A stretch of DNA of 64,000 bases from a virus (Duplodnaviria; Caudoviricetes). The notes under the pieces are model-generated. The model did not search any database. It had not been told where the DNA came from and worked only from the letters and a program-made list of their open reading frames with translations. The DNA is taken from IMG/VR virus record IMGVR_UViG_3300013286_000001, positions 1,007-65,006 of that record; one strand, written 5' to 3'. Of this stretch, positions 8,806 through 13,791 are shown piece after piece (position 1 is the stretch's first letter; every line of letters begins with the position of its first letter). The position numbers were made by a program, and so were the translations under genes.

Positions 8806-8882
8806 TGGTGGGCCGGACAGGACTTGAACCTGCGACCGATCGATTATGAGTCGACTGCTCTAACCAACTGAGCTACAGGCCC
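8806..8882 (-). tRNA. tRNA-Ile2 (CAT anticodon, lysidine type)
   Basis: Cloverleaf GGGCCTGTAGCTCAGTTGGTTAGAGCAGTCGACTCATAATCGAT...GGTTCAAGTCC...ACCA; C4-G69 and C5-G68 TilS determinants; resembles ileX-type rather than Met. Confidence 0.9.
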
Positions 8883-10595: not shown

Positions 10596-13061
10596 TTACT
10601 CTTCATTTGACTGTTGAACTATATAAACTTGAGTATCAGCTGGGAGCGCAGAAGCAGTAATACCCAGCGGAATACCGCCAGGAGTTCTTAGCTCAATTAT
10701 GCCTTGGCCAACTAAACTTTTAAGGGCTTCGTCTCGGCCTTGAGTGCTAATCTCTGGCCGGCTTAAGCCAAAGAATCGTGCAGTATACTGACTAAATAAC
10801 CCGACTGTTAGTACATGAGACTGAATGCTTTTATCCAGCGTAGTTGATAATCGGCCAGCTTTGCGCAGTAACTCTCGAATTGAATCAAGGTCTGTACCTT
10901 CCGTATAGAATTTAATAACAGCTAACTCATAGCGCGATGCTTGGTTAACGGTGTTCATTGCATGCTTGGCTTGGTGTGTAGTTGTATCAACAGTTCTCGC
11001 AATGCTTTTAAAGAGTAGCTGAGCGTTTTGCTTAACAAACTCCATGACTGCAATGCCCCATTCAAGAGACTCAACAGTATGACTGGCACTCTCAGGTTCT
11101 TCAGACCAAGCGTAGATAGCCGACAGATATTGCGCGTAAGTAATATAACGGTTAAACGCATCTTCTTCCGCGTCACCACCGTCGCCTTTACTTGCTGTTC
11201 CAAGTTCCAGTAGCCTTCTTACCAATGGAACGTTTGAGCGCAACAATTCTTGAGAATGAAGCACGGTAACAGTAGGCGAAGTAGTATAGCGACGAACCAG
11301 GTTTGTTGCTTCCGATAGGTCGATTTGAACTTCACCGTCTGGAACTTCAAACTTGCCATTCCAGCTGTTTGCATCAATGGCCGGCTCATTACTTACCCAC
11401 AGTACCAGCCGAGCTAGCAGCCCGTCGCCAAGATGCTGCATTAATACCGGCTTCATTGCCTTGATTGTAGACAGATAAGCGAGCTGAACAACGTAATCTT
11501 GCAAGTCTACTCGACCGCTGTTTGTATTCTTGTCGGCTGAAGTTGTTGCGCCTGGGGCACAGACATTTTCAGTAAACTCTTTGAGAAAAGCTTTTGCCCC
11601 GCCCGGGTCGTTAGACGTAGCAAAGTTGGCTTCAGCTTCATCGACTAGCCCGATTGCTGCGGCTTGTTTTTCAAACAGTGAGATACTGGCCGCAAGTTTG
11701 TTTGCGCCTTGAAGGCCTTTGCCCATGTCCCGAACTGGGGTAAGGGGCAACGCGCCCATCGAGCCTTCAGCCTGTAGGGTTTGCGACACAAGTCTTGCAA
11801 AGTCTCGGATTCGTCGATACGCTCGTGACTTGCCGCGACCTGAGTTGGCCAGTGTGAAAAAGTGAACAATAGGCCGTTTACAGATTGCGTCTGTAATAAC
11901 AGCTTTACCTGTGCTCAGGTATACAGCTTGGCACAGCAGCCGATCGCCAGCAAGCATGCGAGTAAGCTGAATAATCGACGGTGTAGAAACGTCAAAGGCA
12001 ACTTCGCTGACACGGTTCAAAGCTTCTGCAAGTATCCGCATGTTCTTTGGTAAAGGCGGTGGCTCGAGCAGCACAACTGACTCAATAGTCGGTGGAGGCA
12101 ACATAGCAACAACTTCTTGGCCCATCGATAAGTTGAAAGTAACCATCGGCAGTTCAAGCGAGTTGTTCTTTACCATATTGTTGTAGTGCAAGTCAAACAG
12201 CGAGACCAAGTCAGTCACTTTGCGTTGACGCTTTGGCTTTGTGATGTTTGCTTCATCAGCGCACGGGAAAGACAAGAATACGCGTCGCATCTGGCCTGCG
12301 TCAGCAGAGTAGCGCGAAAGACGCTGGACGAATACTCGCATGACGTCCGAGTTAAGCTGTTGCTGTGGGTCTTTGGCGTAGGCTAATGCTTCTGGGTCTT
12401 CTTTGAATTTCTCAATAAGATATTCGTCAGCCACTTCTTCGCCAACAAACTCGTGACGCAAATTGGCTTGTGCGCGTAACTCAGCGTTTTCTCGAGACTT
12501 TGCAGAAATGACCTCTTCAAAGTACGGCGTCAATGGCTGAATATCCGGCCACGCTGGATTTGAACGACCAGTCATGTACAAAAAGGTGCCAGCCCCTCGG
12601 GCGTCTATGCCGTCTACTACCTTGGCAATAACGCCGGCCACTTCTGCCGGGCAGCTAAAAATTTGGTGTAGGCCGTTACCGCGGCTGGACGTCTCTGTCC
12701 AAGTTTCGTTGGCTTTGCATAATGAAGTGTAGCCGGGGTTGGCCGCCAAGTCGTCGTAGTCAAGAACAATAAAACCCGGCTGAATAAGCCAGATGTGCCC
12801 CATGGCAGTGGCTTTAGGATGTTCTTTGAGATAGACCTGAACTTTGACGGATAGTGGGTGCTTTGACATCGACGCAATAGCAGCAGTTGCTACTTCGTAG
12901 TTCACCAAGGTTTCTGGCCGACTAACGTCAGGAGCACGACCTGTCATGTGAACTTGTTTTTTGTAGGCTTGGCCATCTTCATCGATAGCCAATTGCCAAA
13001 CTCCCCAGACTGGAGAGCCGTCAATCAAACACTGTGGGTAGGATGCCGCGCTTAGGGTCAT
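10596..13061 (-). CDS. primase/polymerase-helicase (AEP N-terminus plus DUF3987-like NTPase)
   Basis: IVLDYD, ETSSRGNGLH, LYMTG; ANSGRGKS Walker A, LVDE, DGLLARL; start at ATG 13061 preferred over TTG 13121. Confidence 0.75.
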   Translation of the reverse strand: MTLSAASYPQCLIDGSPVWGVWQLAIDEDGQAYKKQVHMTGRAPDVSRPETLVNYEVATAAIASMSKHPLSVKVQVYLKEHPKATAMGHIWLIQPGFIVLDYDDLAANPGYTSLCKANETWTETSSRGNGLHQIFSCPAEVAGVIAKVVDGIDARGAGTFLYMTGRSNPAWPDIQPLTPYFEEVISAKSRENAELRAQANLRHEFVGEEVADEYLIEKFKEDPEALAYAKDPQQQLNSDVMRVFVQRLSRYSADAGQMRRVFLSFPCADEANITKPKRQRKVTDLVSLFDLHYNNMVKNNSLELPMVTFNLSMGQEVVAMLPPPTIESVVLLEPPPLPKNMRILAEALNRVSEVAFDVSTPSIIQLTRMLAGDRLLCQAVYLSTGKAVITDAICKRPIVHFFTLANSGRGKSRAYRRIRDFARLVSQTLQAEGSMGALPLTPVRDMGKGLQGANKLAASISLFEKQAAAIGLVDEAEANFATSNDPGGAKAFLKEFTENVCAPGATTSADKNTNSGRVDLQDYVVQLAYLSTIKAMKPVLMQHLGDGLLARLVLWVSNEPAIDANSWNGKFEVPDGEVQIDLSEATNLVRRYTTSPTVTVLHSQELLRSNVPLVRRLLELGTASKGDGGDAEEDAFNRYITYAQYLSAIYAWSEEPESASHTVESLEWGIAVMEFVKQNAQLLFKSIARTVDTTTHQAKHAMNTVNQASRYELAVIKFYTEGTDLDSIRELLRKAGRLSTTLDKSIQSHVLTVGLFSQYTARFFGLSRPEISTQGRDEALKSLVGQGIIELRTPGGIPLGITASALPADTQVYIVQQSNEE

Positions 13062-13206
13062 ATAGTAAATCGCCGAAAGAAAGGGTTGCCAGCTGGTCGT
13101 GCTGGGATTACTAATCCGCAAAAGGCTGTACTACTACCCTGAGAGAGACCAATCTCTCGACGTCGGCGAACGCTTTGATAGCAGCACAGTCTTTTGCAGA
13201 CTAGAG
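13062..13206 (-). promoter_or_regulatory. structured 5' leader of primase gene
   Basis: 22-bp G:U-rich stem 13116-13199 and 7-nt complementarity 13163-13169/13070-13076. Confidence 0.6.
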
Positions 13207-13213
13207 GAAAGTA

Positions 13214-13242
13214 ATAATAGGCTTTAAAAAGGAATAAGTAAA
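13214..13242 (-). promoter_or_regulatory. sigma70-like promoter for primase
   Basis: TTTACT-17nt-TATTAT. Confidence 0.65.
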
Positions 13243-13260
13243 TGCTAGCGTAAACTAGCT

Positions 13261-13791
13261 TTACTCAACGTCAATAGTTAACTGGTTAGGCCAGTCGCGA
13301 TCGGCAATAATAGCCTCTTTCAATGCTTCTGCGTTAAGAGTATTGAGTTGTGTGGTTACCAGCCGCAGAGCTTCTGCGCGAATGTTTTGGTGTGACAAAG
13401 TTAGCCGAGCAGTTTGCGTGGCTTCGCTTTGGACTCGCTGACGATAAGGCAAAAGCTTGGCTTCGGTGTTGGTAAGTTGCATTACCTGAAGAGTTGCGGC
13501 GTCTGCCAAGGCTTGAGCCTTTTTAGCTGACGCCATCCACTTGTCGTAGTCTTCCGGAGTTTCGCATTGCAGTGCTTTATGTAAAGCAGCATGTGCTGCC
13601 ATCTGCCCAGCAATTACCAATGAGTTGTGGTGGCGAATCATAACCGAGTAATCGCCGGCTTGGCAATGCGAAAGCAGTACGTCAGCATGAGCTGCAAGTA
13701 AAGCTGGATCACCCATCCCCGAGGCTAACCCAGCGGACATACCAAGATAAGTGGCCGGATCAAGCGAAGGGCTTAGCTTTTCATTCGACAT
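13261..13791 (-). CDS. hypothetical protein
   Basis: 176 aa helical ORF with AAGGAGG RBS. Confidence 0.8.
   Translation of the reverse strand: MSNEKLSPSLDPATYLGMSAGLASGMGDPALLAAHADVLLSHCQAGDYSVMIRHHNSLVIAGQMAAHAALHKALQCETPEDYDKWMASAKKAQALADAATLQVMQLTNTEAKLLPYRQRVQSEATQTARLTLSHQNIRAEALRLVTTQLNTLNAEALKEAIIADRDWPNQLTIDVE

Follow-up and report, generated by a model that had tools for sequence, protein, structure and literature searches.

A conserved leader with a predicted double pseudoknot ahead of a phage primase-polymerase gene, a candidate translational operator

The window, which is the whole stretch of DNA analysed here, comprises 64,000 nucleotides (nt) of an uncultured virus of the Caudoviricetes (record IMGVR_UViG_3300013286_000001, positions 1,007 to 65,006). 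The record is 65,006 base pairs (bp) long, carries direct terminal repeats and was rated complete, and the window takes in nearly all of it. On the minus strand, a gene of 821 codons for a putative primase-polymerase occupies 10596..13061, with its start codon ATG at 13061-13059, and the ~145 nt that end right before this start codon (minus strand, 13206..13062) constitute the leader considered in this report. Judging from its relatives, the leader is very probably a conserved, covarying structured RNA in which two long-range pairings, named PK1 and PK2, both exist. What was seen in this analysis is how the leader folds, that it is conserved, that all six helices covary and that its distance to the start codon is maintained; the transcript start, control of translation, repression as the sign of the effect and a trans-acting factor are what we infer.

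The 821-amino-acid (aa) protein encoded behind the leader matched phrog_3022, 'DNA primase', with an E-value of 2.3e-16, and gave no Pfam or PDB match by sequence search. Foldseek matched the N-terminal domain of its AlphaFold model to the primase-polymerase N300 of phage NrS-1 (7rr4; E 4.1e-6, probability 1.00), within a model that is poor overall (mean predicted local distance difference test score, pLDDT, 58.6; N-terminal blocks 64-85; residues 433-580 below 50). A Walker-A-like segment, ANSGRGKS, as in NTPases, was spotted by eye in the alignment of homologues. The first-pass annotation, made from the letters of the window, had called the product a primase-helicase; the primase half of that name agrees fairly well with these matches, and the helicase half is only suggested.

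A promoter-like site precedes the leader on the minus strand at 13214..13242, consisting of a -35 hexamer TTTACT (13242-13237), a 17-nt spacer and a -10 hexamer TATTAT (13219-13214); it had been proposed before, and a promoter scan recovered it with 9/12 matching positions. Four related loci, L002, L004, L005 and L006, carry TTTACT at the equivalent position, again followed by a 17-nt spacer and a hexamer of the form TAnnnT. Transcription from this site would be predicted to start 1-4 nt before the long stem described below. Between the stop codon of the upstream gene and the -35 hexamer lies a small palindrome, GCTAGTTTACGCTAGC (minus strand, 13244-13259), flagged as terminator-like by the scan, and different short palindromes take its place in L004 and L005 (TTGCTAGCTA; TAGCCATTGGCTA); the palindrome of the window could be an operator or a weak terminator. 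On the plus strand the scan found no promoter-like site within 13060-13260, the only plus-strand candidate being a weak one (9/12) at 12826-12855, inside the primase gene. A weak terminator-like hairpin lies at 13364-13378 inside the upstream gene, and these two plus-strand sites, both of them weak matches, would together frame an antisense transcript across the leader. ARAGORN found neither a tRNA nor a transfer-messenger RNA in 12800-13400.

Folding of a 166-nt stretch gave a minimum free energy (MFE) of -57.5 kcal/mol, compared with -40.07 kcal/mol (standard deviation 4.21) for 200 dinucleotide shuffles, none of which was as good (z -4.14). The MFE folds show a long stem at the base of a three-way junction whose other arms are hairpins A and B; hairpin C, an unpaired AACCC and the start codon follow. 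The 5' strand of the long stem (minus strand, 13177..13204) runs through helix P1 (13204-13191), a mismatched A at 13190 and helix P2 (13189-13177), and its 3' strand (minus strand, 13111..13138) through P2 (13138-13126), a mismatched C at 13125 and P1 (13124-13111), the last containing TTG 13121. Written out, CUAGUCUGCAAAAG-A-CUGUGCUGCUAUC (13204-13177) pairs with GGUAGUAGUACAG-C-CUUUUGCGGAUUAG (13138-13111) in 27 pairs, five of them G:U, with the one A.C mismatch; the first-pass annotation had recognised this helix with its several G:U pairs and, at 22 bp, understated its length.

Inside the junction, hairpin A (P3; minus strand, 13160..13173) carries in its loop region UCGCCGA (13169-13163), the 5' strand of PK1. 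These letters had been described as unpaired; their position was right, and in the MFE fold they are not fully unpaired, CGCC forming the loop of a weak hairpin GCGUU/GACGU. Hairpin B (P4; minus strand, 13141..13158) has a GAGAGA/UCUCUC stem and the loop UUGGUC (13152-13147), the 5' strand of PK2. Beyond the long stem, hairpin C (P5; minus strand, 13089..13105) has a CCAGC/GCUGG stem and the loop ACGACCA, and GACCAG at 13098-13093 is the 3' strand of PK2. The stems of B (13158-13141) and C (13105-13089) were both found where the earlier reading had them. Directly 3' of hairpin C, the unpaired AACCC (minus strand, 13083..13087) is kept in 5/5 leaders, with no partner assigned to it. UCGGCGA (minus strand, 13070..13076), which forms the 3' strand of PK1, sits at the Shine-Dalgarno position 8 nt before AUG 13061, and the exact complementarity of UCGCCGA (13169-13163) with UCGGCGA (13076-13070), already pointed out in the first-pass annotation, was confirmed.

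Relatives for comparison were few. A word-indexed search of 5.8 billion proteins returned 4 matches to the primase-polymerase, and a profile search of 1.84 billion cluster representatives returned 12 matches, 4 of the 12 being full-length relatives. Other homologues were P0002 (68% identity), P0005 (39%) and P0006 (35%). The DNA of the relatives with flanks was found on three viral contigs and one metagenome contig, and the encoded proteins are identical to the window enzyme at 95% (L002/L003), 52-53% (L004 and L005) and 56% (L006) of positions. The comparison set thus consists of five leaders (the window, L002, L004, L005 and L006) in three lineages. Each of the five, folded alone, gave the same nested architecture, with a closing stem of 27-29 pairs.

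For counting, the leaders were aligned with a covariance model, R2, trained on the window and L002 only, to which the others were then aligned (alignment A10); an alignment A7, made with another model, R1, that was trained on a MAFFT alignment in which the P1 3' strand of L004/L005 lay one column out of register, was excluded from the counts. Among 203 cells of the nested helices in A10, 98.5% were paired, and 19/41 pairs had changed on both sides. None of 500 shuffles reached the observed values for 4/5 measures and 3/500 reached the count of further pair types, figures not to be read as probabilities, A10 being fitted to the structure and covering three lineages only. When partners were slid by 1-3 columns, 34-45% of cells remained paired. 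The long stem was paired in 100% of cells in the five sequences, with 13 pairs changed on both sides, and both sides had changed at 4/5 positions of the hairpin B stem and, across lineages, at 4/4 positions of the hairpin C stem. The structural half of the first-pass annotation, namely the long stem, the inner hairpins, the 3' hairpin and the 7-nt pairing, is therefore borne out, since all of these recur in three lineages with compensatory changes.

The leader is also the best-conserved stretch of its neighbourhood. Between the window and L003 identity was 142/145 in the leader, compared with 2122/2466 in the gene and 448/531 in the upstream gene; between L004 and L005 the corresponding values were 136/144, 2139/2471 and 423/488. 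The 3 differences between the window and L002 over 145 leader positions all fall in stems and keep the pairing, two of them jointly turning G:C into A:U and the third turning G:U into G:C. Relatives about 90% identical, from sequencing runs X3 and X4, span the leader, and among the 40 of 339 differences listed for them none lies within 13049-13503. Contigs in two further runs (X2 record 2 and X5 record 9) end inside the leader, at 13180 and 13178, and those of X3 and X4 run through; such ends are probably assembly breaks at the inverted repeat, with no bearing on RNA ends.

Conservation of this kind could in principle be that of protein, if 13121-13062 were coding and a start at TTG 13121 added 20 residues to give the listed open reading frame of 841 aa. 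The frame is indeed open in the window and in L002, but it is interrupted by a stop 11 codons upstream of the start in L004, 21 in L005 and 5 in L006. No start codon lies in these intervals, and a 2-nt indel right ahead of ATG sets L004 and L005 apart. The PHROG match begins at residue 37 of the long form, and the stretch is more conserved in nucleotides than true coding sequence and lacks a third-position pattern. Homologues begin, in the protein alignment, at the methionine equivalent to ATG 13061. Translation from TTG 13121 with protein-level conservation had been named at the outset as an outcome that would speak against a regulatory leader, and L004, L005 and L006 proved to have no in-frame start upstream. 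A coding explanation is hardly credible.

The two long-range pairings emerged when complementary stretches were enumerated between the junction interior and the 3' tail, the same two interactions appearing at equivalent places in every lineage. PK1 joins the hairpin-A loop to the pre-start stretch over 7 bp, as UCGCCGA:UCGGCGA in the window and L002, GCUCCGG:UCGGAGC in L004 and L005, and CCUCGGU:ACCGAGG in L006. All 35 of its 35 cells are paired in the five sequences, with 3/7 positions invariant and 4/7 changed on both sides, and its duplex energies are -11.2, -11.0 and -11.1 kcal/mol across the three lineages. With the partner slid by 1-3 nt, only 6-20/35 cells paired. PK2, which the first-pass annotation lacks, is a kissing interaction of 5-7 bp between the hairpin-B and hairpin-C loops, with the sequences UUGGUC:GACCAG, UUGGUC:GACCAA and UAGCCAC:GUGGCUG across lineages; it is paired in 30/30 cells of the five sequences, has changed on both sides at 5/6 positions, and fell to 1-16/30 cells when the partner was slid by 1-3 nt. 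Dinucleotide shuffling of the tail recreated both pairings at their proper positions in 5, 9 and 3 of 5000 trials, one count per lineage. Because the spacers vary in length by 1-4 nt, tool-made alignments put the strands out of register, and a script therefore counted both pairings at positions anchored on the structure. With PK2 present too, the fold amounts to a double pseudoknot, more than a plain lock of a loop onto the ribosome-binding site (RBS).

The distance from the PK1 3' strand to the start codon is 8, 8, 10, 12 and 9 nt in the window, L002, L004, L005 and L006, the last value assuming a TTG start. As for the strand in which the structure is read, the long stem contains 16 G:U cells versus 2 A.C cells and the sense MFE lies below the antisense MFE in 5/5 sequences, so the structure is read in sense RNA, in line with the earlier suggestion that its G:U-rich stem points to selection at the RNA level. 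An inverted repeat might nonetheless act in DNA, serving as a replication origin, as a signal for single-strand initiation or as a cruciform to which the adjacent replication protein binds. Origins often lie beside or inside initiator genes, the protein model ends in a helix-strand segment that may bind DNA, and the reverse strand scores 27.6-40 bits with the covariance models R1 and R2. A DNA element is very improbable, however: the 16 G:U cells would be A.C mismatches on the opposite strand, the sense strand folds better in every leader, and loop pairings at a fixed distance from the start codon would be meaningless for DNA. The opposite-strand model matches in these genomes are weaker and echo the palindrome.

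What PK1 covers differs in its letters among the lineages. Its 3' strand contains GGAG or GAGG in L004/L005 (UCGGAGC) and L006 (ACCGAGG), and it does not in the window lineage, where the pairing is kept. No canonical Shine-Dalgarno sequence stands before AUG 13061, and many other genes of the phage carry matches of 6-7 nt, for example TAAGGAG and AAGGAGG (72/83 genes in a count biased upward by a script that takes the best-matching start), so the earlier remark that none is evident at this start holds. The nested folds leave the start codon and the spacer unpaired or weakly paired. In L006, the called start of the protein (P0004; region 2495-2535) appears to be 13 codons short; a start at the in-frame TTG near 2495 brings back the Y-P motif that the homologues conserve at residues 8-9 and places PK1 9 nt upstream.

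These features of the start region bear on the main rival explanation, in which the same fold is an activator of the IncI-alpha/IncB kind, the pseudoknot aiding initiation at a weak or absent Shine-Dalgarno sequence, so that the folded state is ON. A gene lacking such a sequence in the window, in a phage with strong ones elsewhere, is what an activator would serve, and the held distance of 8-12 nt between PK1 and the start, the unpaired start codon in the nested fold and the PK1 core CGCC:GGCG of the window, the letters of the IncI/IncB pseudoknot, all fit it. An activator of this kind is rather unlikely, however, with no conserved leader peptide to drive a switch, no inhibitory hairpin over the start for the pseudoknot to undo, and no antisense promoter inside the leader in the scan. 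Moreover, the 3' strand of two lineages carries GGAG or GAGG, which the pairing would hide.

A model of repression is favoured with guarded confidence, in which the leader is a cis-acting translational operator and its folded state represses primase-polymerase synthesis. The first ~145 nt of the primase-polymerase mRNA would form one compact RNA domain, with the stem starting at or beside the 5' end, and PK1 and PK2 would tie the downstream part back to the junction. PK1 would then cover the position needed by the 30S subunit, which in two lineages is an actual GGAG or GAGG, and the folded state should therefore hold initiation low. The conserved, elaborate shape is most probably an operator that a protein recognises in setting the level of the replication enzyme, and the likeliest reader would be either the primase-polymerase or some other replication protein of the phage. 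Were host RNase III to cut the long stem, loops A and B would be severed from the mRNA and the block could be lifted. By our own, speculative estimate, hairpin B, the kissing helix and hairpin C, if stacked (~17 bp), would together with a 4-5-nt linker just span the long stem, and such a span could, equally speculatively, explain why the length of the stem is kept.

Several points weigh against repression by this fold. The set holds only 5 sequences in 3 lineages, and the table of the long-range pairings was structure-anchored and hence leans towards the structure. The transcript, its 5' end and its processing are predictions from DNA sequence, and among the sequencing runs listed as containing the stretch none is recorded as RNA, X5 being RNA only by guess. 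Loops atop a stem of ~78 angstrom must reach hairpin C through the 4-5-nt linker, which is just feasible by our own estimate. The GGAG or GAGG of L004, L005 and L006 is 9-13 nt away from the start, a long way off for a functional Shine-Dalgarno sequence; because these candidates are distant and the window lineage has none, 'masking the Shine-Dalgarno' may be too narrow a description. The TTG start of L006 is a candidate, and with the called ATG PK1 would lie ~47 nt upstream. In the IncI-alpha/IncB plasmids (ColIb-P9 repZ, pMU720 repA), a pseudoknot near a similar place in the rep leader activates translation. Furthermore, a competing pairing of 10 bp can be drawn in the window between CGUCGAGAGA and UCUUUCGGCG (minus strand, 13150-13166 with 13071-13080), which uses the 3' half of hairpin A and the 5' half of hairpin B against the tail before the start. 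L004 has a counterpart (2346-2357 with 2457-2470) in GGCGGG:CCCGCC beside GGCUUC:GGAGCU, and L006 has only GGG:CCC; occurring in two lineages, the competing pairing may be a second state of a switch or may have arisen by chance.

The length of the stem invites another explanation, in which the stem of 27-29 bp is itself the essential element, as an RNase III site, a 5' stabiliser of the mRNA or both, and the long-range pairings are secondary. In each of the three lineages the stem has 27-29 pairs, interrupted by no more than a single mismatch or bulge, a length above the two-turn need of the enzyme, and it begins 1-4 nt after the predicted transcript start, as known 5' stabilisers do. Yet a stem acting by itself is improbable, as it would not account for the covariation of both loop interactions, the conservation of AACCC or the constant spacing to the start. 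RNase III cleavage is also compatible with an operator, where it could be the release step.

A further possibility raised by the double pseudoknot is a riboswitch of a kind not yet described, with this domain as its aptamer, in which a small molecule linked to DNA synthesis would steady the two pairings and shut or open the RBS. Kissing loops that hide the RBS are known from cobalamin riboswitches, every lineage keeps the PK1 energy close to -11 kcal/mol, which would suit a tuned switch, and a multistem junction with two pseudoknots has a complexity typical of riboswitches, according to criteria in PMC5737381. The junction linkers, in contrast, are short and lineage-variable (AAA/U/A, C/G/C and AG/A/AC), few unpaired letters besides AACCC and the loops are conserved in the three lineages, no Rfam family matched, and the family is confined to one rare phage group and one gene, so that a metabolite-sensing aptamer is decidedly improbable. 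A bolder reading makes the leader a new class of sensing RNA, a self-contained domain with its double pseudoknot that gauges the state of replication and gates primase-polymerase synthesis, the signal being free enzyme or a nucleotide-type metabolite; the stem would be a strut of fixed length that docks the top loops onto the ribosome-binding region at its base, and the competing pairing of 10-12 bp would be the alternative state. Such a sensor is unlikely.

The neighbours of the primase gene are replication and recombination genes, encoding a Sak4-like annealing protein, a VG64/RDF-family protein and a DUF7173 protein. A tRNA gene (minus strand, 8809-8882) lies in this replication module, directly downstream of the Sak4-like gene. 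The element is single-copy and always ahead of the primase-polymerase gene in 4/4 phage genomes. Protein and alignment searches of viral, metagenome and genome contigs gave no relatives beyond the same four records, no further ones came from using P0005, P0006 (both distant homologues) or the upstream 176-aa gene as queries, and an annotated phage collection had no match by DNA or by protein. A hairpin-B pattern matched 96 stretches in viral contigs, and covariance model R1, run over 80 of those loci, matched only two already-known contigs. The practical reach of the leader is limited by this rarity, to four phage genomes and one metagenome contig.

Among catalogued RNAs, a scan of the window against Rfam 15 at gathering thresholds returned one tRNA only, and a permissive scan of 12950-13350 (E up to 10) returned only two microRNA-precursor models, at 28.3 and 20.5 bits versus cut-offs of 80 and 100; int-alpA (RF02996) was not matched. 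Neither Rfam nor the literature searched yielded a cis-regulatory RNA for primase-polymerases of the NrS-1 type. To our knowledge, translational control of phage replication proteins is described in detail for a few model phages only (for example T4 gp32, gp43 and RegA). A catalogue of 8,495 candidate structured RNAs from IMG/VR 3 (PMC10690425) may or may not include the leader motif; the word 'primase' is absent from its main text. The leader is a well-defined object, small enough for structure determination, and it bears on a general question, namely whether initiation is helped or hindered when a pseudoknot occupies the Shine-Dalgarno position.

The closest likeness in arrangement suggested by the first-pass annotation is to the IncI/IncB rep leaders, in which the loop of a hairpin far upstream pairs with a short stretch immediately ahead of the ribosome-binding region in the mRNA of a replication gene, with the core CGCC:GGCG as in the window. 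That resemblance stands, and membership does not, the phage leader having neither a leader peptide nor an antisense promoter in the scan, and its letters not being conserved. Its relatives keep the pairing with other letters. The phage leader lacks a leader peptide of the repY/repB type and a start-masking hairpin, and no antisense RNA was seen; no ATG occurs in the window leader, and its GTG/TTG mini-reading frames vary in frame, place and length among lineages, none ending conservedly at the start codon. Furthermore, it has a second, kissing interaction and a closing stem of 27-29 bp, and its gene encodes a primase-polymerase and not a plasmid Rep.

RNase III sites occur in phage leaders such as the lambda N leader and T7 R1.1, and RNase III needs two helical turns. 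The present leader resembles them in a long, near-perfect double-stranded stem ahead of an early or replication gene, exceeding the length of at least ~20 bp. Those sites, in contrast, are not known to have covarying loop-to-RBS and loop-loop pairings, and cleavage here is a prediction. The S4 site of the E. coli alpha operon, a nested double pseudoknot, and the S15 site of rpsO are translational operators read by proteins. Both share with the leader a multi-helix pseudoknot that takes in or abuts the ribosome-binding region, the PK1 3' strand standing 8-12 nt before the start in 5/5 leaders if L006 starts at its TTG. Sequence, gene and organism are unrelated, however, the phage pairing lies upstream of the start instead of spanning it, and protein binding in the phage would be an analogy.

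The gene 32 pseudoknot is a simple H-type one, well upstream of an unstructured A/U-rich RBS region. Gene 32 of T4 and RB69 has this 5' pseudoknot in the mRNA of a replication protein that controls its own translation, as PMC535899 and PMC3014915 describe and PMC10690425 mentions. The present leader likewise joins a 5' pseudoknot to the mRNA of a phage replication protein, and it differs in having two long-range helices, a three-way junction and a direct cover of the pre-start stretch. In conclusion, the leader is, as far as comparison of sequences tells, a new RNA family of a known type, the pseudoknot leader linked to the ribosome-binding site.

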